From contig JBHGNT010000018.1 in assembly GCA_043228905.1 (NCBI GenBank), forward strand, positions 12,524,001-12,588,000: a stretch of 64,000 nucleotides of DNA, read 5' to 3'. The translations under genes were made by a program, and so were the position numbers. The notes under the pieces were generated by a model. It saw only the letters and a list, made by a program, of their open reading frames with translations. It ran no database searches and had not been told where the DNA came from. Positions 30,519 to 64,000 of the stretch are shown piece by piece. Source of the DNA: Azolla caroliniana (taxonomy: Eukaryota > Plantae > Polypodiophyta). Numbering within the stretch: the first letter of the stretch is position 1; each line of letters opens with the position of its first letter.

Positions 30519-30785
30519 GAGTGTTCTACATTTATAATATGTTTTAGAATACTCTTACGTAGTCTACATAGTCATTTTAATTTTTTTTCACATATTCTTA
30601 AGTATTTGATGTATTCAACATATTCTACGTATTTAACTAATATTTAACATTTCAAAAAAGTTTAAAAATTTTAAAAATTTAAGATTATTTAAAAAAAAAT
30701 ATAAACTTTAAGAAGTATGTATTTAAAATATTGTACACTTAGTATTTTAACATACTTAACATATTTTATCTATAGAATACAACTC
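30519..30785. mobile_element. Possible AT-rich foldback/MITE remnant
   Basis: Loosely inverted ends (GAGTGTTCTACATTTATAATATGTT vs reverse complement GAGTTGTATTCTATAGATAAAATATGTT); no clear TSD. Confidence 0.3.
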
Positions 30786-32715: not shown

Positions 32716-32957
32716 GAGGTCAATACCTCGTTTGACATATAAATAATACGTGATGAGTGTCGTATGCGTATGAGGTTAATACCTCAATTATGTATTACGT
32801 TCACAGACATATGTTATGTTTGCGTATGAGTTTAATACCTTGATTTGTTGTAAAGGATATGCGTTTGGTCTCATATCGTAAGAGGTCAATACCTCAATTG
32901 CGTATTACGATGATCTCTTATTTGAGGATGTTTCGTGTGCGTAGAGGTATATACCTC
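32716..32957 (+). repeat. Five regularly spaced 14-bp hairpin motifs GAGGT-N4-ACCTC
   Basis: Copies start at 32716, 32772, 32828 (degenerate), 32882 and 32944. Confidence 0.85.
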
Positions 32958-33119
32958 GATCACACCATTTGTGGCTATTTAATATAACGATATGTTTAAT
33001 CTAGGCATATGTGGTCACGTATATACGTATTTGATCGTATATATGTGATAAGTAAACATATGTGTATATTCGTTATTACGTGATTATATCGAAAGTTGTC
33101 CTTGTCGGGAAAAGGATGT

Positions 33120-41500: not shown

Positions 41501-42505
41501 CCGGACACAGCCGTGATCACCGGCTGAGTAGGATGAGAAGCATTTCCGGTTCGGGGTAAGGTGGAATGACGCTCCGGAGTCGACCACCTAGGTCATCTCG
41601 TCGCCGGCAAGGTTTATCTCACTCTCCTCGGTGATGAGCATCAACTCTTCTTCACTTGCCGCGATTGCCATCGTCCCCTTCCGGTCCATTCCCCTCCGGT
41701 CATTACCGTTCCGGTCCGGGGTCCGCTTCGAATCGGTACTGTCGGTTTCCTTGTCTTTACGGAAATGCCGACAGTTCTTTTGGAAGTGTCCCGGCTTGCC
41801 ACAATAGAAGCAAGTAGGCCTCCCCCTTGACTTTGACCGTGTCCCCGACTTCTCCCGGTTCTGGGGACTACAGTTTCTCTGTCTTCCGCGTTCCGATTCG
41901 GTAAGGAGCGCTTTGGAGTCGGAGCTCGTATCTTTATCTTTCCGACGCGCCTCCTCATCTAGCAAGCTCGACTTTACTCTTGCTAGGGATAACCGCTTTC
42001 CTTCTGGTTCGACGTTGCCCAAAGTGACAACCAACGTCTCCCAGCTATCTGGGAGGGAACCGAGCAGGAGTAGCGCTAGTACCTCGTCGGCGAGAGGTAC
42101 TTCCAATGATGTTGCCTGGTGTATCAGCCCCTGGAAGGCATTCATGTGCTCCGCCATGCTGGAGCCATCTTGGTACCGGAGTCTTACTAGCTTCCGGAAT
42201 ACTGAAACCTGATTAATAGCATTTTTGTTTTGAAACATTATGCCGATCTTCTCCCAAAGCTCATGAGCCTTGCTCTCCTCACTGAAGTTGTTGTACAGAC
42301 TCATGTCGATGAAGCACCGTATGTACGCCGTTGTCTTCATGTTCATCACCTCCCATATCGCGGCGTCGATTTTGTCCGATCTCTTGTCCCCGAACTGAAC
42401 CGGCAGCCAGAGGTCTTTAACCACGAGCATGTCCCTCATCTTCGACTTCCACACCGAATAGTTGGAGCCGGTGAGCTTGAACATGCCTCCTAACAATTCG
42501 TCCAT
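38545..42505 (-). pseudogene. gag-pol: Copia gag-pol with stops and an ~86-bp frameshifting deletion in integrase
   Basis: gag 41588-42505 (CFYCGKPGHFQKNC); IN-RT-RH 38545-40842 still open (LLLYVDDML, TDSD, HSRTKHI); deletion at ~40940 relative to the intact copy. Confidence 0.93.
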
Positions 42506-43005
42506 TTTCTGTGTCGTTTCGCTCTAATACCACTTGACGGGAACTCAACGCTCCTTATGCAACGCTCGGCCTCAACCGAGCTTAGAATCATACACAGAAA
42601 AGAGGAAACGGAAAACACGCGACACAAAGGAGAAGAAAAAATGTACACAACATGTTTACGTGGAAAACCCAAACTAAGGGAAAAACCACGACAGCCCACA
42701 AGCTGCAAACTATCACTATGTTAGAATGTACAACAGTGAGTTCACGGAAGCAACAACCTCGTGCTCACGATTTTCGCCACAGGCGGCGGTTACAACAGAG
42801 GCAACGACCTCTTTCTCTCTCTCTCTCTCTCTGTACACTGTTACGCGCTCTCTCTTCTTCTTGCACCAACAAGAATAACAACCACTCATAAAAGTTTGCC
42901 CTAAGTCATATTTATACTAATATGACTTTTCGGCTATCTACAAATATAGCCATGATGGACTCTCAAAAACATATTTACGAATATGTCCCTTCATCCGGTG
43001 AGCAC

Positions 43006-43327
43006 TTCTCACCGGGTCTGCACCATCCGGTTCTCCGTAACTGGGTACTCCTCATCCGGTTCTCACCGGGTCTGCACCATCCGGCTCTCCGTAGCCGGGT
43101 ACTCCTCATCCGGTTCTCACCGGATCTGCACCATTCGGCTCTCCGTAGCCGGGTACTCCTCATCCGATTCTCACCAGGTCTGCACCATCCGGCTCTCCGT
43201 AGCCGGGTACTCCTCATCCGATTCTCACCGGGTCTACACCATCCGGCTCTCCGTAGCCGGGTACTCATCCGATTCTCACCGGGTCTGCACCATCCGGCTC
43301 TCCGTAGCCGGGTACTCCTCATCCGGT
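43006..43327. repeat. 54-bp tandem repeat in LTR U3 (6 copies; 4 copies at ~38263-38479)
   Basis: Unit TTCTCACCGGGTCTGCACCATCCGGCTCTCCGTAGCCGGGTACTCCTCATCCGG; seen as 18-aa periodicity in the ORF track. Confidence 0.95.
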
Positions 43328-43609
43328 TTGTTCATCGGCACTGTTCTTCTCCCTTCCCATCCGGAGGGACCTGTCTCCCAACACATTCCCCATAAGGGGT
43401 TAAATAGGTACAAAAGGGTAGATACACAAGGGTGCAAGCCCCTTGGGCATTCACACCTAACCACTCACTCACACCTCTTTGTATCCACCACACTCACACT
43501 TACATTCACACTCATAATCGTATAACATTACACATACATATCAACACATTACATCTTTCACCCTCACTTATCACAGTTATCAATCACACGTACGTCTTGT
43601 ACGGTAACA

Positions 43610-45625
43610 CAAGAGTTGAATTTCTGGTACCATTGCCGGGGAGCTTGCTTCAGTCCGTATAAGCTCTTCTTCAGCCGGCACACCAAGTGCTCCTTCCCTT
43701 TCCTCTCAAATCCTTCTGGTTGATGCATGTAGATCTCCTCTTCGGGGTCATCATGGAGGAATGCTGTTTCACGTCCAGCTACTCTACCTCGAGGTCCATG
43801 CTTGCCGTTATGCCCAATACCGTCCGGATGGATATCATCTTTACTACCGGGGCAAAGATCTCATTGAAGTCCACTCCTTTCTTCTGCTGGAAGCCCTTCA
43901 CGAAGATTCGGGCCTTATACCTTGGTGGATTTCCGGCATCTCCCGGTTTCCGCTTGTACACCCACTTGTTCCGGAGTGCCCTCTTTCCTTTCGGTAACTC
44001 CACCACTTCGTATGTGTGGTTCTCATGCAGGGAATCATCTCATCCTGCATGGCACTCAACCACTTGCGGTTGTGGATGTCTACCCTTACTTCTTCAAAGC
44101 TTTCCGGCTCCCCCTCATCGGCTAGCAACACATGCTCTGAATCCGGAAATCTCCGGGGGGCTCTTCTCTCCCGGAGAGGATATCTCTATCCTTTGTTTCT
44201 GACTGCTGGTTCCTCCGTCAGTTCCGAATCCGAATCCAATTCGGGATCTTATCCGGTTCTAGTGTCTTCTTCTTCTTCATCTTTGGTCGGTTCGGTTTCT
44301 TGTCCAAATCTGGCCGGTTCGTCGAGTGTCATCCGGTTACCGGCTAACATCTGGCTTTCAACCGGGTAGGTCCTTGTGTCCTCCAGCCAGTTTTCATTGG
44401 ATGATCCGGAGTTGGTCATCTTCTTCTCTAACTCCCTGTTGGCCATGGTCCTATCTTCCATGAAGACTATGTCCTGACTCCGGAATACCTTCTTGTCGAC
44501 CAGATCCCACACCTAGTAACCGAACTCATCGTCGTTGTATCCAAGGAATATGCATGGCTGGGACTTCGGGTCCAGCTTTGCTCTCCTGTCCTTCGCCACA
44601 TGCACGTATGCGAGACACCCGAACACCTTCAGATGCCGGTAAGATATATCTTTGCTGGTCCATACCTTCTGAGGTGAGTCTCCTCCCAAGGGTACTGAGG
44701 ATGATCTGTTTATCACATAGGCCATCGTCGTCAGCACCTCAGCCCAAAACTTCTTGGGTAATTTGGCATGTGTGAGCATGCTCCGGACTCTCTCCATTAT
44801 GGTCAGGTTCATCCTTTCAGCCAGCCTGTTTAGTTTTGGCATCTTCGGCACGGTAAACTCGAGCCAGATTCCCTTTGACCGGCAGTACTCCTCGAACTAC
44901 CCCCGGTATTCTCGTCCATTATCTGCTCGAACCGCCTTCAGGTTCCAGCCGGTTTTTCTTTCCACTCTCGCATGGAGCTCATTGAAGACGGATAACACTT
45001 GGTCCTTCGTCTTCAACGGTGAGACCCATAGCTTCCAGCTGTGGTCGTCTATGAACGTCACGAAGTACTGCTATCCGGCATGTGACTTCGTGTCGACTTG
45101 ACACACATTGGTATGCACAAGCTCCAATGGTGCATTCTGTCTCATCGGTGGTCTTGACCGGAAGGAGGTTCGGTTTTGCTTGCTGGCTAAGAAATCGGTG
45201 CACTTCTCAAGATGCACGTCCTTCACTGGAATGAGATTGTCATAAGCAAATCTTTTCATCCCCTTCTCACTCATGTGACACAATCTTTTGTGCCACAACT
45301 CACCGGCAGTGTCGGATGCTACATTTGCTTCTTCCCGGCATATCCGGGCATTCATCAAGTACAATGTGTTGATCTTCCGGGCTCGAGCCACTATTAAGCT
45401 CCCTTTGCTGAACTTCATAGCTCCGTTCCGGATGCTACCCGTGTAGCCTTCGTCATCTAGTCGACCGGCTGATATCAGGTTCAGTCGAACCTCCGGAATG
45501 TGTCAGACATCCTTCAGCAGCAACTTGCATCCAGTTGATGTCGTCAACAACACATCTCCTATGCCGACAATTCGGCATGTACCTTCATTCCCCATCCGGA
45601 CACAACCATGATCACTGGCTCTGTA
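43610..45625 (-). mobile_element. Third, older fragment of the same copia lineage (end of PR, integrase, start of RT)
   Basis: Minus fragments MKFSKGSLIVARAR, AERMNLTIMERVRSML, LPKGKRALRNKWVY; cut at 43609 by the gypsy LTR. Confidence 0.9.
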
Positions 45626-47287
45626 GAACACAAAAGCTAATGTGTGCGACAACGAGACTGAGCAAACCTCAAAAAGCAAAGACATGGGCCAATTGGGCCA
45701 AGCGGATCCAAAAGATGTGATCACAAAATCTAACAAGGATAATACTAGCGTAGAAGTCATGGTCAACTCCAAAGTATACCACGAAAGTAGAAAATGTGAG
45801 AAGCATGAAATGTGTTCACTTAAGGACCTCAAGATGAGCATGCAGTTGAAGAATGAACCACTAAGAGTACTCAACAATAGTATTTCGATAAGGCCTTTGA
45901 AAGGCATGCATGGAACAAGAAAGGATGATAAAAGAAAGTTAGATGACCAAGGAGATGGCCGAGACGAAGGTGGCATGTGCACGAGGTGTGAAGCATTATG
46001 CTCAAGAGGAGCAAAGAGAGCCATGACAAACAATCATGGAAATGCAAAAACTAACCGAAGAATATGAAGGATCGGATGGCAACGGTGGTTCGGGTATAAA
46101 GAACAAACATCGATGAAGTAGAATAATCAAAAGAGGAACCTCACTACAATTGGCACATACCGGTGGATGTGCAGGTTTGGTGGGGGTGAATGTCATGTGG
46201 TTTTTCACACATGATATGAAAACTATGTAAAAAAATAATAATGAAATAATTATTTTAGATTAGATTAGTGGCTTGTTATAGAAATATGAATGTACTCAAG
46301 AGCTTCAAAATGCATTTTACTACATATCAAATACACAACTACATATCAAGTTATGTGACCATGAAGTTTCAGAAAATAGGGAAAATAGAACTATGATTTA
46401 TACCACATAGATAGGAAACTTAAGGCTCCAGCTATATAAGCACATTGAGATCCCTCATTTTTCATCTATGTGTCAAGAGCACAAAGAAAATAGTTGGACT
46501 TGAGCCACTTTGTCTAGATGGATAAATGTGGCTAAGTTCTAGGAACCGGCCGTCAATCAAAGCGGAACTGGTTGGCAATCAAAGCGGAATTGGTTGGTCA
46601 TCAAAGCGGAACCAACTGGTTATCAAACTGGAACCGGTCGGGCATCAAACCGGAACTAGCAAAATCAGCAATCGGATGGAGCCGGAAACAGGGCAGAGCC
46701 GGCAACCGGGAATCGGCTACCGAACAAAACCGGTGATCAGGCAGAACCAACGACCAGACGAGGCTGGACAAGGATCAGATGAATTGGATGGGCGGCGATT
46801 GAGACGAACGGATGATTGGATCATGCAGCGAATTAAAGTAAAGTAAAGAAAACTAAAGTAAAGGCCATGTGGACAGTCGCATGCATCTAAAAGAAAAAGC
46901 CATGCAACTAAAAATGGATGCAACTAAAAGTGGGCATACAAAGTAACATTGAAGGCGATGATCAACGGAGAACTCTATATATATTCCATTTTTTTTTCCT
47001 ACACTCATGCTCTCTCTCCATTTTTTATTTTCTTTTCCTTCTTAGCTCCCTTATCTTATCGGAGCCATAACACTCAAAAACCCTAATCTTCCCTACGGAA
47101 ACCATTCAACTCAAAAACCCTAATTTCTTATCGAAACTCAAAAAACCCTAATTTTCCCTACAGAAGCCATAACACTCAAAAACCCTAATTTCCTTACGGA
47201 AGCCATATCTCTCATATACCCTAATTTCCTTATGGAAGTCATATCTCTCATAAACCCTAATTTCTTATTGAACTAAAAAACCATAAT
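45626..47287 (+). mobile_element. 3' internal region, PPT and truncated 3' LTR (from 46191) of a tRNA-Trp-lineage gypsy
   Basis: GGTTTGGTGGGGGTGAA then TGTCATGTGGTTTTTCACAC at 46191; LTR colinear with solo LTR 23246-24732. Confidence 0.8.
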
Positions 47288-47349
47288 TTTCTCACTGGGT
47301 CCTCTATATTCATCACCGGATCCCATTCGGAGAGACCGATTTCCCAACA
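47288..47349 (-). mobile_element. ~60-bp 5'-end remnant of a copia LTR
   Basis: Reverse complement TGTTGGGAAATCGGTCTCTCCGAATGGGATCCGGTGATGAAT nearly matches the start of solo LTR 4220. Confidence 0.85.
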
Positions 47350-48796: not shown

Positions 48797-50098
48797 TGTC
48801 GTGTGGTTTTTCACACATGATATGAAAACTAGTAAAATAATTATTTATGATTAGCTTAATATATTGATATGGGAAGATATATGTCTTCAAGAGCTTCATA
48901 ATGTATTTTACTACGCATGAATTGGATAAATAAGTATCAAGTTATGTGAGTGAGAAGTTTGAAGAGAAAAAGGAAAAAAATACAAATTGTGCGATATCCC
49001 ACATAGATAGGTCAACATTGGAACGCAGGATATATAAGGGAAACCAAAACATATTCATTTTATCAATGTGTGGAGCATAGAATGTTCAAGGTGACTTGGG
49101 CTACATTGTGTGGTGTGCACGCTTCGGGCGTACGCGCGTATGCAGTCATGTTGACGCTTCGGGCGTACGCGCATATGCACACTCGTGTTGATGCTTTGGG
49201 CGTACGCTCGTATGCACGGTCGTGTTGACACTTCGGGTGTATGCGCGTATGCCCGACCGCGTGGACGTTTTCGAACGTACGCATGTGTGCAAGTTTCGGG
49301 CGTACGCATGCACAGACGCGTGTATGCGGACGAGCACGCGGATGCGTACACGGCGCAGTTGGGATGCGTGTGTGTGCGGATGCGCATACACGGTGCGGGT
49401 TGGACGCGCGCGCGCGTGGATGCATACATTGCGCGGCCGAGACTTTTGCGCACGGACGCGTCTACGGTTTGGTTGCCACGCACGTACAGATTGTGCACGG
49501 GCTAAAATTTATGGATGATTGTGTCATTTGGCCGAATTATACGGACAATCGCATGCAACCAAAAGCCAAGGCCATGCAACTAAAAGTAAAAGTCATGCAT
49601 CTAAAAATGGAAGCATGCAACTAAAAGTAGAGGCTAGGCAACTAAAAATAGAGGCCATGCAACTGAAAGTGGGCATGCAAAGTAACATTGGGGAGGAGGA
49701 TCAACAAAGAGCTCGATATATGTCCCATTTTTCCCCTCTCAGATTCGAGAAACAAATTATCTCACATATTGATATCAAAATCCTAGCTTTGTTTACTTGA
49801 TCTTTCTTGTCAAAAATTATCTCTCGTATTCATATCGAACCACTCTTTGCATGGTTGTTGGCTCCTTTCTTTGAAGAATTAATCTCTCATTTCCATACCC
49901 AACCCATTCTAACACGATTCTGAAATTATAAAGAATCGATTTTCTTTTGCAATAAACTAATGATTTGTCTCTCCCACTTGTCTTATGCTTAAAACTTGCT
50001 TGTGTTGTACATGTTGCACTAAATCCTTCTAGTCTAGAACCCCGGCGGTTCCGTCTCACGATCCGCACATAGTGACGGATTTTCACGACATAATTAAG

Positions 50099-50116: not shown

Positions 50117-51320
50117 AGAGGCGGTAGGGAGGATATCAAGTGCAACGATGGCTTCCACAAGCGGAACTCAAGGAGAGGAATTAACGAAAGGCATGGTCTC
50201 CATAGTGGAATACATGCTGAAGGTGAGAGATCGAGAAGCTTTAATCGACAAAGCTATTGATCCTACGGTCGAGATAGCTAGACGATTTGGTGGCAAGAAC
50301 ATCGCGGATTTTCTTGCTACCTATCGGAACGAGATGCAATAAAGGGATGTCAATGATCTCAAACAATTTTCTAGCTTCAAACGTGTGGTGGAACCAGGGA
50401 TCCGCGATCGCGTCATGGAGATCCAAAATGAGCATGCAACTTGGGCGGAGTTCGAAAAGGTGCTTCTCGCTGAATACATGCTTGAAGACGCATCACGGAT
50501 GACTCGACATACGCTAATGTCTTGGATTGAGAAAAAAAGGAAGAATATGTGTGCCTTTGGAGTTTATGCCAAATTCGACCAGAAGTATAACTGACTTCCA
50601 AGTGTTGATCAACGAGTTCTCGATGGAGATAAAGTCCTACTATTCCTAACAGCAGTGGATGCGAAAGATCGGTGTGAATTGGGTAACTTTTTGGAGGATG
50701 AAACACAACCAAATGGCTTGGTAGCAAACTGGGCGGCAGTGAAGAAGGCTTGTAGTCGTCTTGATAAACGTCGACAATGGCAAGAGGAAACTGATATGGA
50801 GAATCCACAATTGTGGAGGAGGAAGGCACCTGTGACGATTGAGTCTAACCAACCGATCAACAATTTCGACAAGAAAGTGATGGAGGAATCTATAATCGAA
50901 GAGCTCTCCAAGAAATTTGAAGCGGTATCGCTGGCCAACTTAGGTCGACGCGGGCCAAAGGGAAAAGAAGCGTATAGATGTGTGTGGTGCGACAAGTTCG
51001 AGCACTCACGAAGGGAGTGCACTGACTTGCAAGACGTGATTCGCAAGAATGTCGTCTATTTGGACGGCAACATGATCCACTCGAGTGAGACCTGAAAGCC
51101 ACTACGAGTGAACTTTGGAAGAGGCGGGCTAAAAAAGCTCGTGGAAGAGGAAGATGCAAGGCATGTGGAAGCCATGCACTACGCCGCATCGGCGGGAATA
51201 CGAGTCGAAAGAGAGAATCTAAAGACAATCAAGCCGGGAGTTGGGTTTTGGCCAACGTGTTGGGATTTCGGTCCCTCCGGATGGTATGTCCCCGGAGATG
51301 AATGACGGCAAGCCCGGTTC

Positions 51321-51427
51321 CGGTTACGGAGCCGGATGACGAAGACCCCGGCTACGGAGCCGGATGATGAAGACCCCGGCTACGGAGCCGGATGATGAAG
51401 ACCCCGGTTACGGAGCCGGATGACGAA
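51321..51427 (+). repeat. 28-bp tandem repeat (~3.8 copies) in LTR U3; same in the 3' LTR
   Basis: Unit CGG(T/C)TACGGAGCCGGATGA(C/T)GAAGACCC. Confidence 0.95.
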
Positions 51428-51931
51428 TGTACCCGGAGAGAGATCCGGATGCGGGGACATATTTGTGAATATGTTTGCCAAGAGCCCTTGAGGCTATATT
51501 TGTAAATAGCCCGAAAGTCATATGTGTATAAATATGACTTAGGGCAAACAGTTGTTGTTGTTGCTCATTTTTCTGTTGTCCACTAAGAGGGAGCGAAGTG
51601 AGAGCAGCCGAGCGAGAGTGAGAAAAAGAAAGAGAAAGGAAGAGGTCGACGCCTCTGTGTAATACCGCCGCCTGTGGCGAGGATAGCGAGCTCAAGGTTG
51701 TTGCCTTGTAGCCTCACCATTGTACATCTCTGTGTATAGTGATAGTTGGAGTTTGAGAACTCCCGTGGTTTTTCCCATTTAGGGTTTTCCACGTAAACAT
51801 CCTGTGTATTCTTCTCTCTGTTGTTCTTCGTGCATTCTTGTATTTCCCGTTTTCTGAGAATCGATCCTGTTCCTCGGCTGTGGCCGAGCACGGAATTTCA
51901 ACAAGTGGTATCAGAGCGACTGTTGCAGAAA

Positions 51932-54900
51932 ATGGAAGGCGGCGGCAGCGGGCAGCCGGGGATGATGGTGCTAAATGCACAGAATTACGCCGACTGGAAG
52001 ATCAAGATGGAGGATCTTCTGATTGTTCGGGACCTGTACGAACCGATTGACAGGTCGGAAATACCGAAGGGGGTACTTGAGTCGGAGTGGAAGCTCCTGA
52101 ACCGGAAAGCCGTAGCGACGATCCGACAATATGTCGATGTAAGCGTCCTACAACATGTTGCGAACGACACCAACGCATATGAGATGTGGAAGAAGCTGTC
52201 GGGCCTCTACGAGAGGAAGAATGCGTTGAACCGGACCTCCCTGATGAGGAAGATAGTGAATCTCAAGTACCGGGACGGCGAGAGTATGGTGGAACACGTA
52301 AGCACGTTCATGGGATTCGTGAACCAGCTTGCGGCGATCAAGTTCCCGTTGGAGGATGCAATGCAAGCCATCATCTTGATGTGTACTTTGCCGGACAGCT
52401 GGGAGAACTTGGTGGTGACTCTCAGCACCTCCTGCGCCGAAGATAACTTGTCCCTACAAACGGTAAAGACAAGTATTTTGAACGAAGAAGCGCGTCGGAG
52501 AGATAAAGAACCGGTCTCCGACTCGAAGGCGCTGCTTACCGAATCGGAACGCGGAAGACAATGGAACCGGAGTCCGCAAAGACGGGAGAAGTCGGGGACC
52601 CGGTCGCAGTCAAGAGGAAGGCCAACATGCTTCCACTGCGGGAAGCCGGGGCACTTCCGGAAGAATTGTCGGCATTACCGAAAGGACAACGGAGCCGACG
52701 ACACCGATTCGAAGAAGTCACCGGAGAGAAACGGTGCATACCGGGGAGCCACGGACCGGAGAGGTCCGGATCGGCGAGGGCAGGACCGGAAAGGAACGAC
52801 GGCACTCGCGGCAAGTGAAGAAGAGATAATGCTTATTACCGAAGAGAGGGAGCTGAACCTTGCCGGCGTAGAGATGACCTGGGTGGTCGATTCCGGAGCG
52901 TCGTTCCACCTGACCCCGGAGAAGAAATACTTCTCATCCTACACAGCCGGTGAGCATGGCTGTGTCCGGATGGGAAATGAAGGTACATGCCGGATTGCCG
53001 GCATAGGAGACGTGTGGCTGATGACATCAACCGGATGCAAGATGCTGCTGAAGGATGTTCGACACGTTCCGGAGGTTCGATTGAACCTGATTTCGGCCGG
53101 GAGGCTAGACGATGAAGGCTACACGGGTAGCATCCGGAACGGTGTCATGAAGTTCAGCAAAGGGAGCCTGATAGTGGCTCGGGCCCGGAAGGTCAACACT
53201 CTGTACCTGATGAATTCCCGGCTATGTCCGGAGGAGCTGAACGTGGCAGCTGGCGCTGTCGGTGAGCTGTGGCACAAGAGACTGTGCCACATGAGTGAGA
53301 AGGGGATGAAGAGGCTTGCAGAAGACAACCTCATTCCAGTGAAGCATGTGCACCTGGAGAAGTGCACCGACTGCCTGGCCGGTAAGCAAAACCGGACCTC
53401 CTTCCACTCAAGGCCACCGACGAGACGTAGCGCACCATTGGAGCTGGTGCACACTGACGTGTGTCAAGTAGAAATGAAGTCACATGGCGGAGCCCAGTAC
53501 TTCGTGACATTCATTGATGACCACAGCCGGAAGCTGTGGACGGCACCGTTGAAGACAAAGGACCAAGTGTTGTGCGTCTTCAAAGAACTTCACGCGAGAG
53601 TCGAAAGGGAATCCGGCAAGAAGCTGAAAGCGATACGAGCGGATAACGGAGGGGAATACCGGGGGCAGTTCCAGGAGTACTGTCGCTCGAAGGGAATCCG
53701 GCTCGAGTTTACTGTGCCGAAGACGCCGGAACTGAACGGGCTGGCCGAGAGGATGAACCGGACCATAATGGAGAGGGTCCGGAGTATGCTGGCGCATGCG
53801 AAATTACCCAAGGGATTTTGGGCTGAGGCAATGTCGACGGCGACGTATGTGATAAATAGATCACCCTCAGTACCTTTGGACGGAGACACGCCGCAGAAAG
53901 TGTGGACCGGTAAGGAAGTGTCCTACCGGCATCTGAAGGTGTTCGGGTGTCTCGCATACGTGCATGTGGCAAAGGACCGGAGAGGAAAGTTAGATCCAAA
54001 GACCCGGCCATGCATATTCCTCGGTTACGGCGACGACGAGTTCGGCTACCGAGTATGGGACCCGGTCGACAAGAAGATATTCAGGAGTCGAGATATCATC
54101 TTCATGGAGGACAAGACACTCGCCGACTGGGAGTCGGAGAAGAAGATGAAGAGCTCCAAGTCGACCGGTGAGGATAAACTCTACGAGGAGCAGTCCCGAC
54201 CGGCAAGGGACCGGTTAGCACTCGAGGACCCGACCGAAGACGGTGAAGAAACAGAACCGGCCGAGGAAGATGAAACTGATACCGGAACCGGCCCCGATCC
54301 CGAAATGGATTCGGATGAAGAGGAAACGGAGGAGCCGGTTACCGAAGCTCCGGAACGGAGATATCCTCTAAGAGAGAGAAGGGCCCCCCGGAGATTTCCG
54401 GAACCAGAGCACGTGCTACTAACCGACGAGGGGGAGCCGGAGAGCTTTGAAGAAGCAAAGCATGACACCCAGAGCCGCAGGTGGTTGAGTGCCATGCAGG
54501 ACGAGATGGATTCCCTGCATGAGAACAACACATATGAGCTTGTGGAGTTGCCGAAAGGAAAGCGGGCACTTCGAAACAAGTGGGTATTCAAGCTGAAACC
54601 GGGAGATGCCGGAAACCCCCCGAGATACAAAGCCAGGATCGTGGTGAAGGGGTTTCAGCAGAAGAAGGGCGTCGACTTCGACGAGATATTTGCCCCGGTA
54701 GTGAAGATGACCTCCATCCGGACGGTGCTGAGCATAGCGGCAAGCATGGACCTCGAGGTAGAACAGATGGACGTGAAGACGGCATTCCTTCACGGTGACC
54801 TCGAAGAAGAGATCTACATGCAGCAACCGGAAGGATTCGAGAAGAAAGGGAAGGAGCACCTGGTATGCCGGTTGAAGAAGAGCCTTTACGGACTGAAGCA

Positions 54901-56005
54901 GGCTCCCCGGCAATGGTACCGGAAGTTCGACTCCTTCATGACCGACGAAGGGTACCTCAAAACGCAGTCCGACCACTGCGTGTTTGTGAAGAAGTTCGAA
55001 GGAGGAGACTCTCTAATACTCCTCCTGTACGTGGACGACATGTTGATCGTCGGACGGGACCAGGTCAAGATACGGATGCTGAAGAAGGCTCTTCACCGAA
55101 CCTTCTCAATGAAGGACCTGGGTCCGGCGAGGCAAATACTAGGGATGCACATCATCCGGGACCGGAAGAAGAAGCAGTTGTGGTTGTCACAGGAGAAGTA
55201 CGTGACGAAGGTCCTTCACCGGTTCAACATGTCGGAAGCGAGACCGGTCGGATCGTCCCTCCCGACAAACTGCAAGCTGTCCAGCAAGCAAAGTCCCAAG
55301 ACAAAGGCTGAAAAGGAGGACATGATGAAAGTACCATATGCCTCTGCCGTCGGAAGCTTGATGTACGCAATGGTGTGTACAAGACCGGACATAGGATATG
55401 CAGTTGGAGTGGTGAGCCGGTACATGAGCAATCCCGGCAAAGAGCACTGGAACGCGGTCAAATGGATACTTCGATACTTAAAGGGCACTTCGAACATGTG
55501 CCTCCGATTCGGCTCCGGTAAGCCCGAACTCGATGGATTTACCGATTCGGACATGTCGGCTGATGCGGATACCAGCCGGTCTACATCAGGGTATGTAATG
55601 ACATATGCAGGGGGAGCCGTTTCGTGGCAGTCGAGGCTGCAGAAGACGGTTGCGTTGTCAACCACGGAGGCGGAGTACATGGCAGCTGTTGAAGCCGGCA
55701 AGGAAATAATATGGATGAAGGACTTCATTAGAGAGCTCGGTATCCGGCAGGAGGAGTACCGACTCTACTGCGACAGTCAGAGTGCCATCCACCTTGCGAA
55801 GAACGCGGCCTACCATTCCCGGACGAAACACATCCAGCGTAGATACCACTGGATCCGGGAGAGGATAGAAGACGAGGAGCTCGTGCTGACGAAGATCCAC
55901 ACGGACGAGAACGGGTCGGATATGCTGACCAAGGTGCTCACACCCGACAAGCTGGAAGCATGCCGGAAGAGGATTGGATTGGAGAGACATCCCATGCCGA
56001 AGTGA
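51932..56005 (+). CDS. gag-pol: Copia Gag-Pol polyprotein (gag, CCHC knuckle, protease, integrase, RT, RNase H), 1357 aa
   Basis: First ATG after the PBS. Motifs CFHCGKPGHFRKNC, WVVDSGASFH, LWHKRLCH..CTDC, VHTDV/FIDD/NGLAERMN, LLLYVDDML, TDSD, TKHI. Confidence 0.97.
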   Translation: MEGGGSGQPGMMVLNAQNYADWKIKMEDLLIVRDLYEPIDRSEIPKGVLESEWKLLNRKAVATIRQYVDVSVLQHVANDTNAYEMWKKLSGLYERKNALNRTSLMRKIVNLKYRDGESMVEHVSTFMGFVNQLAAIKFPLEDAMQAIILMCTLPDSWENLVVTLSTSCAEDNLSLQTVKTSILNEEARRRDKEPVSDSKALLTESERGRQWNRSPQRREKSGTRSQSRGRPTCFHCGKPGHFRKNCRHYRKDNGADDTDSKKSPERNGAYRGATDRRGPDRRGQDRKGTTALAASEEEIMLITEERELNLAGVEMTWVVDSGASFHLTPEKKYFSSYTAGEHGCVRMGNEGTCRIAGIGDVWLMTSTGCKMLLKDVRHVPEVRLNLISAGRLDDEGYTGSIRNGVMKFSKGSLIVARARKVNTLYLMNSRLCPEELNVAAGAVGELWHKRLCHMSEKGMKRLAEDNLIPVKHVHLEKCTDCLAGKQNRTSFHSRPPTRRSAPLELVHTDVCQVEMKSHGGAQYFVTFIDDHSRKLWTAPLKTKDQVLCVFKELHARVERESGKKLKAIRADNGGEYRGQFQEYCRSKGIRLEFTVPKTPELNGLAERMNRTIMERVRSMLAHAKLPKGFWAEAMSTATYVINRSPSVPLDGDTPQKVWTGKEVSYRHLKVFGCLAYVHVAKDRRGKLDPKTRPCIFLGYGDDEFGYRVWDPVDKKIFRSRDIIFMEDKTLADWESEKKMKSSKSTGEDKLYEEQSRPARDRLALEDPTEDGEETEPAEEDETDTGTGPDPEMDSDEEETEEPVTEAPERRYPLRERRAPRRFPEPEHVLLTDEGEPESFEEAKHDTQSRRWLSAMQDEMDSLHENNTYELVELPKGKRALRNKWVFKLKPGDAGNPPRYKARIVVKGFQQKKGVDFDEIFAPVVKMTSIRTVLSIAASMDLEVEQMDVKTAFLHGDLEEEIYMQQPEGFEKKGKEHLVCRLKKSLYGLKQAPRQWYRKFDSFMTDEGYLKTQSDHCVFVKKFEGGDSLILLLYVDDMLIVGRDQVKIRMLKKALHRTFSMKDLGPARQILGMHIIRDRKKKQLWLSQEKYVTKVLHRFNMSEARPVGSSLPTNCKLSSKQSPKTKAEKEDMMKVPYASAVGSLMYAMVCTRPDIGYAVGVVSRYMSNPGKEHWNAVKWILRYLKGTSNMCLRFGSGKPELDGFTDSDMSADADTSRSTSGYVMTYAGGAVSWQSRLQKTVALSTTEAEYMAAVEAGKEIIWMKDFIRELGIRQEEYRLYCDSQSAIHLAKNAAYHSRTKHIQRRYHWIRERIEDEELVLTKIHTDENGSDMLTKVLTPDKLEACRKRIGLERHPMPK

Positions 56006-59000
56006 AGGGGGAGTTTGTTGGGATTTCGGTCCCTCCGGATGGTATGTCCCCGGAGATGAATGACGGCAAGCCCGGTTCCGGTTACGGAGCCGGATGACGA
56101 AGACCCCGGCTACGGAGCCGGATGATGAAGACCCCGGCTACGGAGCCGGATGATGAAGACCCCGGTTACGGAGCCGGATGACGAATGTACCCGGAGAGAG
56201 ATCCGGATGCGGGGACATATTTGTGAATATGTTTGCCAAGAGCCCTTGAGGCTATATTTGTAAATAGCCCGAAAGTCATATGTGTATAAATATGACTTAG
56301 GGCAAACAGTTGTTGTTGTTGCTCATTTTTCTGTTGTCCACTAAGAGGGAGCGAAGTGAGAGCAGCCGAGCGAGAGTGAGAAAAAGAAAGAGAAAGGAAG
56401 AGGTCGACGCCTTTGTGTAATACCGCCGCCTGTGGCGAGGATAGCGAGCTCAAGGTTGTTGCCTTGTAGCCTCACCATTGTACATCTCTGTGTATAGTGA
56501 TAGTTGGAGTTTGAGAACTCCCGTGGTTTTTCCCATTTAGGGTTTTCCACGTAAACATCCTGTGTATTCTTCTCTCTGTTGTTCTTCGTGCATTCTTGTA
56601 TTTCCCGTTTTCTGAGAATCGATCCTGTTCCTCGGCTGTGGCCGAGCACGGAATTTCAACACAACGGTATTCGAGTGTGAAAAGAAAGAAAAAATAGATT
56701 TGGAGGCTCTAAAACATGTTGATTGGAATGTGCGACAAGTTACCGGATGGTTGGATCTAGTCGACGATAACACAAGCTTTGCGGAGGTTGTGTGTGACAA
56801 CTATGAAGCTCTTGTTGAAGAGAAGAGGAAAAGAACTGGTGAAGAAGATGGCACATCAAAGTGTCACAATACGAGGAATGTAGGGAAAGAAGGACAAGCC
56901 CAACCTACGCCACGAAAAGAGATGGGAGAAACAAGCATGAATCCCGGTGGATCAAGCCAACCTTCTCGGATGGAAGTCGATGAATCTGTGAAGAAAGGAA
57001 AAGAACGAGCGGCGCCGACTTACAAGCTAAGGTCGGACATAGAACAAACAACCGACTTGCGGAAGGTCCTTGAGGAGAAGGTTTTAGACAGTCATGTCGA
57101 CCTTACTTTGAGAGAGCTACTTGGGATCGCTAAAAAGGAGTTCCACGATACTATCGTGGACTTGATTAAGCGGAAGCGGCAACAATCGGATGAAGAGGAG
57201 GTGAAAACAAGTACCATAACCATGTAAAGATCGGAAGAGGAGGAGGAAGAAGAAGTGACGGAAGAGCGACAACGGAGACGCCGGTGAAGATTGGAGAGAA
57301 GAAAGAGACCGTGGTAGCCTTGATTGCCCATGCTTCAGAGATCAACCTCATGTCGACCGAATTCTACAAGAAAGGAAGATGGCCGATCAACACAAACCAC
57401 AGATGGAAGATACGAGCGGAAACGAAGGCCACAGAAGACCTGTACGAAGCTTGCCCCAATGTTAAAGTCACGATTGGAGATGTGGAGATGGATCAACGCT
57501 TCTTCGTGCAAGACTCGGCTTCACATCCCGTCATCCTAGGACAACCATATATCACATCATCCCGGATGGAGACTAAGGTGTTCGATAATGAAGCGGCCTT
57601 CGCGCGAGTCAAGAGCCTTAACAATCAAAGGTTTGTTCAATTCCTTACGGTGTGGGCTAATCACGAAAGGAACCGAGATAGCCTTGGAGGCGAATCCTTG
57701 GATTTTTAGAGCGGACTATTGAAGCGTGGGGCACAAATAGTTCGAGCAATCATAAGTTGCCACAAGGAAGCAAAATAAGTGGATCGCAAGGAGAAGCAAC
57801 ATGTGTGAAACCTAGTGGTGCATGTAAACTAACACTACTCAACAAGAAGGACAAGCGGCGGATACAAGACTTCGAGAAGATGCTAAAAGAAGAAAGCATA
57901 ATCGAAGAGGAAGAATTTGTGTCTCATATTCTAGAGGAAGCCTCATTTAGCGACACCATCGGCAAAATCGAGGAAGTCGTGGACTTGAGCTACCTTCACG
58001 AGAAAAATGTGATTTCGGTTAACTCCGTCAACATGTACGTTATCATCGATGAATATCATTGGGGCATCTTGATGGAGGAAGATGAAGTCAACACAAAATA
58101 TAAAATGGTGGATAAGAAGATCAAGCCAGTTGCGGTTTTGCTACCGGAAGATAGCTGGTAGAAGATGAAGGAAGTTGTTAATGATCCGAGCCTAAGGGAT
58201 CCAAAGGCAATAGGTCATGTCTTCACCAAAGAGACAAAAGGAAAGCTACAAGTTGGAAGGGAAGATTTCCTTCTCCCTGAAGAGGAGAGAATGTTCCGCG
58301 GAATGCTTGACGGACATGGGAAAGCCTTTGCCTATTCTCCACAAGAGATCGGATGTGCCAACCCGAAGATAATAGAGCCGATGGTGTTTTTTACGGTACC
58401 GCATGTAGCATGGAACCTCAAGCCAATACCGGTTCCAAGAGCTCACATTCCGAAGTTGATTGAGCTTCTAAAAGAAAAGGTTAGGATGGGAATACTTGAG
58501 CCGTCCAATGCTCCCTAGTCCAATAGATGGTTTACGGTGCCGAAGAAGAACCGGTCCTTACGCTTTATTCAAGATCTCCAACCCGTCAACAAGGTGACAA
58601 TCCGAAATGCCAGAATTGGTCCAAGTGTAGATGAATTTGCTGAAGCCTTCGCGGGAAGATCAATCTATTCCATTGGTGATCTCTACTTGAGCTATGATCA
58701 ATTTCAATTGGCCGTCAATAGTAGAGACATAATGTTACCGGCCGGCAAGGAGTCCAAAATACGGAGTGAAGGAATTAATTAGATATGGTTGTAAATGAGC
58801 ATAGTGTGGACGGACGGACTGTAAACGGTATGCCGTTCCAGATCCGGACGGATCCCGAATAGGTGCGAGAGGCACCGTTTTGTACTACGGGCCGGAAACC
58901 TATTTAAAGGCCCGGACCCCATTGTAATCGCAGCGGATAATTAATAGAGCTTATGTTGTTTATACTTCTGTCTTGATTTCCGTTCTGTAATTACTGTTAT

Positions 59001-59155
59001 ATCTTACGCGTGTAATTAACCGAAGCATTCTAATCGTGTAACCTATGTAAGTCGGTGTAATCGTTGAATCTTAATCCTATGCCGTAATCACCCTTTGGTG
59101 AAGTGTCTCCGTGACACCTTGTGTTAGGCCTTGTCCGGCTAGAGAATAACACAGT

Positions 59156-60078
59156 TTTTAGTCCTTCTGTGAATCGCGGCACGAGCTGCAAGAGTCTTCC
59201 TAATGGTAACGTGATCTGACATTCTTGCAGTGCTTGCCATGTCTCGTTTTCTGGGTGGCTACCGCCGGCACTCCCTATGGTATTCGCCTTTTGCCGTTCC
59301 GCGTCCGCGACGTTCCTTTCATTGGCTTCCTTCACCCATTCCGTCGCCTGTTTTCGTATGGCCTCTTGTGTTTCCCATTCTTTGGCCATGCCTTTCGACC
59401 GTGTGGTTACTTGCTGTAAATCCGCCACTTCCGAAACCACCATATTAACTGCTGGTCGTTTCTCGTAGCTCTTTACCGGGCACTGGTTACTGTAGTGGCC
59501 TTCCTGCCTGCAGTAGTAGCAGTACTCTTTACGGGTATTGCTGGATTCAGCATTGCTGGTAGCCGGAGTTGGTCCCGTAGTGAGTGGTGCGTTCTGTGCC
59601 GGTTGGCTCCTTGGGGTTCCCTGTTCCGGGTCCCTAGTGTGACCACCTTTCTTAAAATTACGTTTCTTATTATTCTTATTTTTATTTCGGTAGTCCGGTC
59701 GTGGTAGATCGTAAAATCGGCCGTAGTCCTCCTGGTGCCTTCGGTAACCCGGGGAATGGTCTCTGTCGTATTGCTCGTGTCGTCTGTTGGGCTCCCGATA
59801 ACGGTCCGATCGCTCATACCGGTCGTAGTTATCACGCCGATTCCCGTACCGGCCATCATTCTCTTGCCTGTCCCCGTACCGGACATCCTGTGCCGGTGGG
59901 TACCGGTTCATTCTTTGCCAACGATCGTCATCTTCGTCTCGGCTGCTTCTTGGCTCGATCCGTCGGACGGGTGGTGCTTGTCGATTTAACAGGTTGTACT
60001 CGCACCGGTCCGTTGTATGACTCTTGGATTGACAAATCACACACTGAGTGCGCATGGTGCACTCTACTGCCGAGTGTC
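59156..60078 (-). pseudogene. gag: Inverted C-terminal gag fragment (open reading frame, zinc knuckles intact)
   Basis: HSAVECTMRTQCVICQSKSHTTDRC...CYYCRQEGHYSNQC...LGRLLQLVPRFTEGLK; homologous to the sense gag at 22290-23220, but antisense to its own LTRs. Confidence 0.9.
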
Positions 60079-60122
60079 ATCACCACTCTACCTCGCCATC
60101 TTTCCTCGACCTCGAAGCAGAC

Positions 60123-62822
60123 ATGGAACCACAAACGCTGTCGGAAGCGGCCAGGAAATGGTTCAGGCAACACGGACTGGAGGGCTTCTTGGCCATCATG
60201 GAAGCACCACCGCACAGAGAAGCCGACTAGGTCATCAAGGAGCTCGACAAGGAAGTCATCACCGAGGAAGCGATCCGTGCGCTAACAGGCCTTCCGGAGG
60301 GAGGAATTTTTCAGATTGATAATCCAACCTCGGAGCAACTCACCCGATATTTCGGTGAGTACTCTGTTGCCGGCAAAGGCTATCAAACGCAGGGCGGCGA
60401 AGATCCGCTGTTCAGGGAGATAGCTCGAGTGCTCCATGAGTACGACCACGTGTACCCCCGACCCCCTGTCATGCCAAAAAATCGGGCAGGGATGATCATA
60501 GCCACCTATGAAGGGACCAAGGTGGATTGGCCGGTGTTGATTGCAGACGGTTTGTGCGTGGCAATCGACATGGTACGAGGAAAGGACGGCAAGGAGGGCC
60601 GGAAGCTGTGGCATGCCGTCGCTCAGTGGATAACATTGCTCGTGCCGCCGGTCGAGACCGTTCAGCCAAAGAAGCGGCCAAGAGTATCGGAAGGAAGCAC
60701 CTCGAAGCCGGCGTCCAAACGACAGCAGCTGTTGGCGTCGAAGGCGACGAAAGGGAAGAAACGGGTCCCAGAACCGGAGGAGGTGTCACCGGTCCGACCC
60801 GTCAAGATAACCTTACGGAGACCGGGACAGAAGGAACCGGAACCCTTGATGGCACAGAAACATGCCGTGACACAGGAAGAGGAAACGGAGGAGCCAGAAG
60901 AGCACCTCCAACGACGGTCAAGAAGTAGGGCCGCCAAGACAGGAGGGGAGCGGTCGTACCCGCGAGAGGCAGAAACGCCCCCAACTCAACCTGAGCAAAC
61001 CACAAGGGAAGAACCGGAACCGGTGCGTAGGGAACCGGTCTTGTCGACTTCTATAGAAGAAGTCAGTCCAACGGCTCCGGAGACGGCGAGAACCGGAACT
61101 CAACAGCCGGCGAGCCCAGCCAGAGCACACGGCGGCCAAGGAGTAGAACCAGAACGGCATATGCAGGCACTCAGGCCAGACAATTCCACAGGGAATGAGC
61201 CGACCCGACCAGTACAACAACAAGGCACCAGTAGCATGTGGCTACGGTGGGTAGGCGAGCAAATCGCCGGAGCGGTCGAGTATATAGAGGCGGAAGAGAG
61301 AGCGCACCAGGAACGGTTGCTCGTCACAACCGTAGATCTAGAGACGGCCCGGTCCAGAATCCGGAGCCTTGAACAAGACTTGGACAGGGTCACAAGGGAA
61401 ATGGCTCAATTCGCTTTGACAACACAAGTCCAAGCACCGGTGACTCCGGGCAATGTACAGAATAAAGTGTCAAATCAACCTGTACATAGCAATCAGACCC
61501 CGGCAACGGAAACCGTTCCGGAGAGAAATGTGGCACAAGCCCAAGAGCTTGCGGATTTAAAGGATGAGCTAGCTGCCCAAGAAGCGCTGAGGAGCCGCGA
61601 AAGAGAATTGAAGACGGCAGCGGAGGCAGAACTCAAAAAGACTGCTGAGAATCTACGCCGGGCCGAGGAGAGCTTACGGAAAGGCCACCAAGCGTACGAC
61701 CGGCTCAAGGAGGAGAAGGAGAAAATGCTGCAAGAGAAGGAGAGGCTCCGGAGGAACGCCGAAACAGAAGTAGAGCGCCTGAAAGAGGAACTCCGGCAGG
61801 TAAAGGACCGGGAGGACCGGAACCATCGCCAGATCAACGACAAGCTCAAACAAAAAACGGAGGAATTTGAGCAATTGCACCGGGAGTATAAACAGTTGCA
61901 AACGGAGCACAAGGAACGGACGGATGAGCTCCGGCAAGCAGTTGATCGGACCGCAACCGCATTCGCCAAGGAACAAGCGGAAAATAGAAGACGGTTGGAA
62001 GAGGCGGAGAAGGTTCGGACAGAGCTCCTCAGGCAACAGCAGGTGGAAAAAGAAAGAGCGGCGGAGGTACTGCAGAGGCTGCAAACGACATATCAAGGGC
62101 AGCTGACGCGCTACAGAGAGCAGGCGGAGGATACGACAAACCTCATCAAGCAGTTGAAGGAGGAGCGACAAGTGGTGGAAAGCAGAGCGCAAATGGGAGC
62201 AAGTCGCATCCAGGATATAATGCGGGCCTGGTTGAACCAGACCAAGAGCTTGATTGACAACGGTTCCGTCAAATGGTGGACCAAGTGGGCCACGAACGCG
62301 GCGGAACTCCAATTGCTCCGGGCCGATGTAGAGAATCGGCGGAAGGAGGGAGATGATTGCTATATGCTGAATTCTGAAGATTTCACCGGCATAAGAGATG
62401 AGCTGGCCGAAGACTTTCAAGCCTTGGTAGAGGACCAACTAGAGCAAGTCCGGCAACTTGTAGCTCAGCTGGACGACGACAGGCTGGAGGCGCAGATCCA
62501 GTTTGAAAGCTACGAGAGGTCCCGGATCCGGGAAGAGAAAGAACGAGAACCAGTTACGGTCAACCTCAGTGATGAGGAACCCTTACTGGAAGGAGACCGG
62601 ACCGGAAGCAGTCAAACGGAGATGCCGGAGCCAGAGAGACAAACGGAGCAGCCGGAGTCAGCGAAACAAACGGAGCAGCAGCAGCAAGCAGAGCAGCCGG
62701 AGCAGCCTCAGTCCCAACCGCAACCACAGCAGCAGCAGCAAGCACAGCCGCAACAACCACAACCGGAAGAACAAGTGGAAATTCTTGAACAAAGTAATTT
62801 GGACAATTTGGGTGAACAATGA
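60123..62822 (+). CDS. Retrotransposon 3' extra ORF of unknown function (globular N-terminus, disordered linker, long coiled coil, Q/E/P-rich tail); one in-frame TAG at 60228-60230
   Basis: ORFs 60048-60230 and 60429-62822 are in the same frame, and the frame is open from 60231 to 62822. E/K/R/Q-rich heptad-like segment at ~61280-62540. Confidence 0.75.
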
Positions 62823-64000
62823 AGGGGCCGAGAAGGGTTCGACGTACAAGGTACTGTCCCACGGGCGTGCCATGTGTTACCGGCCGGCAAGGAGTCCAAA
62901 ATACGGAGTGAAGGAATTAATTAGATATGGTTGTAAATGAGCATAGTGTGGACGGACGGACTGTAAACGGTATGCCGTTCCAGATCCGGACGGATCCCGA
63001 ATAGGTGCGAGAGGCACCGTTTTGTACTACGGGCCGGAAACCTATTTAAAGGCCCGGACCCCATTGTAATCGCAGCGGATAATTAATAGAGCTTATGTTG
63101 TTTATACTTCTGTCTTGATTTCCGTTCTGTAATTACTGTTATATCTTACGCGTGTAATTAACCGAAGCATTCTAATCGTGTAACCTATGTAAGTCGGTGT
63201 AATCGTTGAATCTTAATCCTATGCCGTAATCACCCTTTGGTGAAGTGTCTCCGTGACACCTTGTGTTAGGCCTTGTCCGGCTAGAGAATAACACATAAGA
63301 ACAATGAGGACGCCGATCGGGTTGGTAAGGATGTGCACCTTACCCCAAGGTGTGACAAATTCCGTCGCCCACATGGTGAATGCCATGAACAAAGTGTTGA
63401 GGGATTGTATCCCTGATATCACAATGACCTTCTTAGATGACATTCCAATCAAAGTATGCTTGGTGGAAGAGAAAGATGAATCGAAAGATGACAATGGTTG
63501 CCGAAGATTCGTCATCGATCATATAAAGAATAGAGAGAAGGTGTTGCAAAAGCTTGAGGATGCGAATCTCACGCTTTTGGGATAGAAGTCTGCATTCGGT
63601 CAACCAGAAATATTGGTAGTGGGACACTTATGTGGGTCTTATGACCGGAAGCCATCTCCATCCAAGGTGAACGCTACTCAAGAGATGAAAGAAGAATGTG
63701 TGTCTCAAACAGAGGTGCGTAGATTCTTGGGAGCATGTGCATTCTATCACATATGGATTCCACATTATGCCCATGTTGCTAAACCATTGTATGGACTATT
63801 AAAGAAAAGGAAGAAGTTCGAATGGGAAGATGAGCATACCTACGCGATTCGAAAGCTAAAGAAACTATTATTGGAAGCTCCAGCACTACGCAAAGCCGAC
63901 TACACCGATGGTACCCCGATATATGTGACGGTGGATACGAGCCCAACCAGAATTGGATGGGTGATAAACCAAGAAGACAAAGAAAAGAATCGGTATGCAA

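Follow-up and report, generated by a model that had tools for sequence, protein, structure and literature searches.

The rearranged long terminal repeat (LTR) retrotransposon at 58733-63293 of the window, by which we mean the whole stretch of 64,000 nucleotides analyzed from Azolla caroliniana (Polypodiophyta; assembly GCA_043228905.1, contig JBHGNT010000018.1, positions 12,524,001 to 12,588,000), belongs to a Ty3/gypsy family whose plus strand is, judging from its sequence, probably primed by a real host transfer RNA (tRNA). This priming is the main finding; the element itself, hereafter the window copy, is ordinary. New here are four independent loci shown to have host tRNA-Arg(UCU) sequence fixed directly left of the 5' LTR, and two-tRNA priming with such genomic footprints is likely to be a new form of LTR replication. 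We lean, a little more guardedly, towards a joint reading in which a one-off reverse-transcription accident gave the window copy, which is probably inert, and in which host tRNA-Arg(UCU), acting at a cassette before the 3' LTR, starts the family's plus strand. With the same reserve, we suggest that a large plant Ty3/gypsy lineage may have dropped the polypurine tract (PPT) and would have both strands primed by host tRNAs, using a bipartite site with a hairpin that steps over m1A58; tRNA copies at the U3 end would be the proof, and the head-to-head symmetry could give inverted products like the window copy, whose minus strand retains the look of an element that can be primed.

A preliminary description of this DNA had reported no clean PPT before the 3' LTR. 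The sequence is indeed not purine-rich (45% purine in the last 20 nt before the LTR, longest purine run 3), but this is not damage: a family-wide, tRNA-derived cassette occupies the place, and its tRNA-Arg 3' end had been missed. We found the cassette in seven of the eight relatives first fetched and in all 11 further copies readable to the 3' LTR (of 16 copies, with 10 kb fetched for each). In the window copy it comprises a T-arm piece (62835-62842), a 13-nt insert with a 4-bp hairpin (62843-62855) placed exactly between tRNA positions 58 and 59, and 17 of the last 18 tRNA bases (62856-62872), whose terminal CCA is separated from the 3' LTR by two bases. Host tRNA-Arg(UCU) genes align with the cassette, which, read on the minus strand, resembles a primer-binding site (PBS) 2 nt from the LTR. 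Its core motif has 1,620 matches in the genome (0 for the reversed control), with a fixed one-base difference from the tRNA across these copies. The tRNA-cassette duplex was computed at -49.4 kcal/mol, a strength reached by 0 of 1,000 shuffles, and tRNA-Arg(UCU) is predicted to form 17 + 8 bp with the minus strand, between which the hairpin loops out.

Regarding the hairpin of the insert, it was 98% paired in 26 element sequences, with six double changes at one pair, and none of 500 shuffles matched it; this alignment used 21 of the 30 cassette loci, the rest being omitted as near-repeats. Five different perfectly paired stems were present among 48 variants from metagenome contigs, in a scan that gave at least 120 matches, 45 of which were dropped for having no LTR-like start after them. 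Two further observations concern the cassette. A young copy at C10:6883215-6892091 (L069, L070), flanked by a CTGTG duplication, has lost about 1 kb up to the 3' LTR, including the whole cassette. Besides, sister families (L102/L144, C22:10737516-10744926; L140/L285, C16) carry tRNA-Arg(UCU) sequence both at the 5' PBS and in the 3' cassette, with a different 2-nt spacer.

Should the plus strand start from a tRNA, failed removal of this primer is expected to leave tRNA sequence left of the 5' LTR. The exact tRNA end followed by CCA, two bases and TG occurred at 10 places in the genome (exact-pattern counts, here and below, refer to the whole 523-Mb assembly). Seven of them represent the four independent loci, which belong to four LTR families; in each, the tRNA piece lies directly left of the LTR, which is then followed by the PBS. 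At C16:17527334 and C20:881280 the tRNA match stops at exactly 18 nt, and m1A58 is described, in sections of PMC11251516, as a stop when a tRNA primer is copied. In both elements the own cassette differs from the tRNA piece left of the LTR. The C16 locus contains three LTRs in a row, joined twice as LTR-spacer-T, tRNA 18-mer, AG and LTR, inside one AATAG duplication. At C2:12742725 the tRNA copy reads through with a T at A58, a base also seen in two read-throughs at 5' PBSs; its 3' LTR is cut by an assembly gap, which leaves the target-site duplication (TSD) uncheckable. Finally, the match at C2:12014875 extends over about 55 nt. The tRNA bases of the footprints come from two different isodecoders and are lacking in the cassettes. 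According to these sequences, the footprints look like those expected if a tRNA primes the plus strand.

The remaining three exact matches (L097, L098 and L102) were rejected as ordinary 5' PBSs read backwards, L098 by its likeness to L097 only, and 10 of 14 read-through matches were set aside as lying on the 5'-PBS side, two of these (L296 and L300) by the spacer alone. Many 5' PBSs (L083, L084, L075, L293-L301) carry 25-70 nt of reverse-transcribed tRNA, that is, frequent read-through of m1A58. C10:14180230 (L297) presents a junction of head-to-head type, with a reverse U3 end, a long tRNA-Arg(UCU) read-through and the reverse U5 end of the same family, and looks like an integrated LTR-LTR junction that kept the minus-strand primer. 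A palindromic pair of LTR ends at C597:1-540 (L086), with a full 18-nt PBS, a sense tRNA-Arg(UCG) read-through and a reverse LTR end, lies on a small contig and could be an artefact.

In the model that we propose, tRNA-Arg(UCG) would prime the minus strand at the PBS. The tRNA-Arg(UCU) would then anneal to the new minus-strand DNA over 17 bp, loop out the hairpin at A58, pair over 8 bp more and prime the plus strand two bases before the LTR. A primer that is not removed would be copied, usually up to m1A58, and would stay at the left end. Several points weigh against this model. The footprints are rare error products, known from four loci in a family of more than 1,600 copies. One of these loci, C2:12014875, is ambiguous between models, being a chimeric array of tandem type with the tRNA piece at the 3'-LTR position as well. 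A copied cassette RNA has its last 10 nt in common with the real tRNA; by switching onto it there, it could produce an identical footprint. In the alignment from this genome the double changes affect one hairpin pair only, and kinship can beat a shuffle control. An antisense-RNA template is also possible on these data, and the uncorrected cassette is compatible with it because Ty3, according to parts of PMC5371799, does not rewrite its PBS from the tRNA.

Two other ways of using the cassette have to be weighed. It could act within the element's own RNA as a tRNA-like, RNase H-resistant primer, a real tRNA being captured only occasionally. The conserved hairpin, a CCA end that has the sense of the genomic RNA and the one-base difference fixed in 1,620 copies would fit such a self-primer. 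We nevertheless consider it unlikely, given that the footprints left of the 5' LTRs carry host bases from two isodecoders that the cassettes lack, and that the position of the insert, exactly at the 58/59 step, is the one to expect if room has to be made for a modified tRNA. Even less probable is a mirror replication in which antisense transcripts are also packaged and the cassette serves as their first-strand PBS, both strands still being tRNA-primed. The minus-strand cassette would be a good PBS 2 nt from the LTR, and at the C2 tandem locus a tRNA read-through replaces the internal 3' end via a 4-nt microhomology, yet the TATA-like site and gag-pol point the other way. Moreover, exact 18-nt tRNA matches are common at 5' PBSs, and none of the 10 and 14 exact matches was of this kind at an ordinary internal 3' position.

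Priming of the plus strand by tRNA-Arg(UCU) can be compared with two known systems. Sections of PMC5371799 describe for yeast Ty3 the same Ty3/gypsy domain order, a minus strand primed by a tRNA, plus-strand priming that occurs repeatedly, transfer of a strand with no PBS copy at its end and extra tRNA contacts beyond a short PBS. Drosophila gypsy, as presented in parts of PMC1635307, has two tRNA-Lys sites, the second of them also near the 3' end of the genome; however, it is on the genomic RNA that both sites bind the tRNA, and the 5' site alone is required. In contrast, the 3' site of the Azolla family has the tRNA's own sense, would be able to bind the tRNA only on minus-strand DNA or antisense RNA, and appears to replace the PPT. 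A search of full-text literature, which covers few subscription journals, returned no description of tRNA-primed plus strands or of PPT-less elements.

The parent family is an abundant non-chromovirus Ty3/gypsy family. Its order, taken from the eight relatives, is LTR, PBS, gag, pol, extra open reading frame (ORF) and LTR on one strand, and Pfam recognized gag, protease (weakly, E 0.037), reverse transcriptase (RT), RNase H and integrase in that order in a full-length relative. The LTRs have TG...CA ends, the TSDs are of 4-5 bp, and the PBS after the 5' LTR is a 13-nt match to host tRNA-Arg(UCG); tRNA-Arg is among the primers used by non-chromoviruses (sections of PMC6317226). Of the relatives' PBSs placed by the preliminary description at 21035 and 37508, the one near 37500 is recognizable and that near 21035 is degenerate. 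The PPT that characterizes Ty3/gypsy elements does not adjoin the 3' LTR of this family. The integrase of the relative has no Chromo match (one was found in another element of the window), and its two scanned ORFs, which lie about 550 bp apart, have no Pfam match to the additional archaeal-type RNase H of the Tat clade. The extra ORF had no Pfam match to Athila ORF-1 (PF03078), and an Atlas look-alike at 0.83, with PF03078 on 17% of its members, is a lead only. The nearest named proteins in a list of homologues belong to liverworts, a conifer and a fern (40-46%).

By the criteria in parts of PMC6317226 the parent family would be Athila-like. It shares with the Athila-like non-chromoviruses of the OTA superclade (Neumann et al. 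2019) the lack of a chromodomain and of a detected extra RNase H, a forward extra ORF at the 3' side and a 5-bp TSD, and it differs in being PPT-less; the sections of PMC6317226 consulted mention no PPT-less lineage.

The features of the window copy are collected in Table 1. Its LTRs are identical (419/419 nt), as the preliminary description had it, and have TG...CA ends; CATAA flanks the copy on both sides. The insertion lies within the RT gene of a different gypsy element, and this gene can be read in frame to its left and right. The reversal of a gag fragment of about 920 bp also held: gag lies on the strand of the LTR and the extra ORF in 8/8 relatives first fetched and on the opposite strand here. 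Alignment to a relative of 9,863 bp bore out the reported loss of the leader, the gag N-terminus and pol; the window copy keeps 1-426 of that relative, next the stretch 1683-2601 in reverse, and finally everything from 6647 on. Hence it lacks about 1.26 kb with the PBS, leader and N-terminal part of gag, and 4.05 kb with protease, RT, RNase H and integrase. Between the inverted piece and the closest sister copies, identity is 99.0-99.6%. The microhomology is 5 nt long at junction 1 (GTTTT, 59154-59158) and 2 nt long at junction 2. The extra ORF has a premature stop that 0/18 relatives have and is open for 783 codons from a Met at 60471; it gave no Pfam match, either here or in the full-length relative, and its Atlas matches (0.90 or lower) are to unnamed clusters.

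Table 1. Features of the window copy and its flanks (positions in the window).
Feature	Position	Strand	Remark
Left target-site duplication, CATAA	58728..58732	.	
5' LTR, 419 bp, TATA-like site at 58900	58733..59151	+	
LTR-to-PBS spacer remnant and first PBS base; contains junction 1	59152..59158	+	
Inverted C-terminal gag segment with zinc knuckle	59154..60078	-	
Junction 2, 2-nt microhomology TC, single copy in genome	60077..60078	.	
3' extra ORF, low-complexity, charged	60123..62822	+	premature stop 60228-60230
tRNA-Arg(UCU) cassette where PPT expected	62835..62872	+	
2-nt spacer, CCA to LTR start	62873..62874	+	
3' LTR, identical to 5' LTR	62875..63293	+	
Right target-site duplication, CATAA	63294..63298	.	
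Interrupted host: decayed Ty3/gypsy pol (RT, RNase H) belonging to a different element	58162..64000	+	

The window copy was very probably made during reverse transcription, by one accident before insertion. The preliminary description had it either rearranged right after insertion or mobilised as such; the short microhomologies fit the repair that the former implies, but both options missed this likeliest route. Junction 1 falls at the PBS edge, where transferred plus-strand strong-stop DNA would end, and in Ty3 this DNA ends at the point of tRNA removal, without a PBS copy (sections of PMC5371799). We estimate the chance of a random break within a window of about 10 nt at the PBS edge at about 0.2% (two tries, 9,025 internal nt). 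A single reverse-transcription accident is favoured because the left break lies exactly at the end of that DNA. The LTR-spacer-T end retained here was also seen in a natural LTR-LTR junction of a sister family. In the proposed sequence of events, minus-strand synthesis would stall just upstream of the extra ORF, near 60077, and plus-strand strong-stop DNA (LTR and spacer, no PBS copy), left without its normal acceptor, would pair via GTTTT with gag on the still intact genomic RNA. Copying of about 920 nt of gag RNA would give antisense gag, the product would join the stalled minus strand through TC, and integrase would insert it with normal ends.

Parts of PMC1950507 report that template switching yields rearranged elements in cereals with matched LTRs and TSDs. 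These products (Sabot and Schulman 2007) resemble the window copy in being rearranged between matching outer LTRs and a TSD, by a reverse-transcription error followed by normal integration; they differ in being three-LTR fusions, whereas the window copy is inverted internally, has lost two segments and is broken at the PBS edge. Some points speak against the accident or the joint reading that includes it. The microhomologies are short, and the likely inertness of the copy is read from its mutation pattern only (see below). No piece bridging either junction was found among the listed pieces of assembled contigs from 7 runs, which had parental loose ends only; as rare variants are lost from such contigs, this result speaks neither for nor against the structure (24 runs were listed, all as assembled contigs, and 7 different ones were compared with both junctions).

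Insertion of an intact element, later rearranged by DNA repair with two deletions and one inversion, appears quite unlikely. End-joining would account for the short microhomologies at both junctions, and 15 private substitutions imply that the copy or its donor has been in the genome for a while. Against this, repair would require a single element to be broken internally so as to give four ends, one lying exactly at the PBS edge, and would have had to leave both LTRs and the TSD untouched. An assembly artefact is very unlikely: the one point in its favour, that the junctions are left unbridged in the compared contigs, is uninformative, and the perfect TSD, the host frame continuous on both sides, a base at 58822 common to both LTRs and present in 0/43 relatives' LTRs, private bases of the inverted gag piece (among them those at 59434 and 59654) found in 0/21 relatives and a break at a biologically defined point speak against it. 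The inversion, the junctions and the losses are confirmed as real in the assembly.

Two other ideas were rejected. Mispriming of the minus strand by a gag RNA fragment instead of a tRNA lacks extended pairing with the leader (rank 7,981 of 8,925 20-nt windows). An element running on the minus strand, suggested by the PBS-like site at 62872, does not agree with gag-pol and the extra ORF being on the LTR's plus orientation in all relatives. As for separate donors of the gag piece and the extra ORF, the nearest copies differ by private changes only and do not discriminate between one donor and two. As a separate observation, a related family has an element at C1:26324279-26327575 (L146), within an ATTGG duplication, composed of a 5' LTR, the gag start, about 1 kb of other sequence and an inverted LTR with cassette, then a fold-back of about 115 bp, a cassette and the 3' LTR; the spacer and first PBS bases of the inverted LTR run into unrelated sequence, making it a second inversion broken at the PBS edge.

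The suggestion that the structure itself is mobilised was not supported. Junction searches by DNA similarity in the assembly scored the best 40 of 2,937 and the best 40 of 1,748 candidates, and among these only the window copy spans either junction; the parental neighbour was present at 29/29 other gag loci and 29/29 other extra-ORF loci. Within the subfamily, the exact LTR end plus spacer was followed by a non-G (rearranged) once and by G (normal) 23 times, so that junction 1 occurs in one of 24 exact matches, and junction 2, searched with up to one mismatch, matched once (control 0). For comparison, we used non-autonomous LTR families (TRIM/LARD-like). Such a family has the same internal structure at several sites with different TSDs and keeps the PBS and leader in cis; the window copy does neither. 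It is a single rearranged insertion that has not spread in the assembly and does not look like a mobilised non-autonomous type. A better candidate for a mobilisable non-autonomous form is a 1.48-kb deletion derivative at C1:35722218-35723700 (L150), which kept both LTRs, the PBS and the cassette within a CTCGC duplication. We also observed a small, apparently non-coding LTR family (about 2.5 kb; L134:750-3300, L084, L136) with the same PBS type and the same 3' cassette, and, at C2:12017973, a chimera of this family with the LTRs of the main family.

The insertion had been described as very recent. It belongs to a young burst of the family and is not special in age: its 15 private internal substitutions in 3,714 nt fall within the 7-41 private changes of 14 sister copies, which have 0-5 LTR differences, and three of the 14 also have identical LTRs. 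All 15 substitutions are C-to-T or G-to-A; 14 were checked for context, which is CG or CHG for 13 of them (background 49%). This pattern suggests that the window copy or its donor was methylated, and makes it likely that the copy is inert.

It had also been proposed that RNA driven by the LTR would be antisense to the family's gag, and the TATA-like site together with the parental gag orientation agrees with this prediction. The likeness drawn to maize Mu killer did not stand. Mu killer, according to sections of PMC3440606, is likewise a rearranged family member carrying an inverted coding fragment, but it is an inverted duplication that gives a hairpin RNA of about 4 kb, whereas the window copy is a plain inversion without a hairpin, its longest inverted match being 17 bp. 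That the copy is a mobilised non-autonomous type, or silences its family in trans through antisense gag RNA, is thus highly unlikely, and an active silencing role taken by itself is very doubtful. The LTR promoter does face an inverted gag piece more than 99% identical to young family members, and on the minus strand one LTR is followed by a tRNA site and the other is preceded by a stretch with 70% purine; yet the structure is single-copy, has lost its PBS and leader, forms no hairpin and shows the substitution pattern of a methylated copy. Sister copies decay alike, which would mean that the family is silenced with no need of the window copy.

Regarding the rest of the window, we identified a Copia element at 51258-56661 with near-identical 646-bp LTRs and an open polyprotein frame of 1,402 codons, to which decayed Copia copies at 37789-45626 are related in the opposite orientation. 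A chromodomain gypsy element at 32019-36155 (457-bp LTRs, 97% identical) is nested in the gag of an older relative (30759-37500), and a dispersed repeat with 21-bp and 36-bp tandem units is present in several copies and both orientations (23987-24462, 46706-47295, 49187-49888 and 8002-9257).

Taken alone, the window copy matters little, being a dead-end product that marks the end of plus strong-stop DNA. The footprint fossils turn a resemblance of sequences into a sharp prediction on plus-strand 5' ends. Plus-strand priming from a PPT is treated as a step shared by retroviruses and LTR retrotransposons (parts of PMC5371799 and PMC6894440). If two-tRNA priming is true, such a family would be missed or mis-oriented by LTR annotation that scores a PBS plus a PPT, and the supply of host tRNAs, together with tRNA fragments, would control both of its strands. 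A successful, recently active family with a second tRNA instead of a PPT would then mean that the plus-strand priming step is exchangeable.

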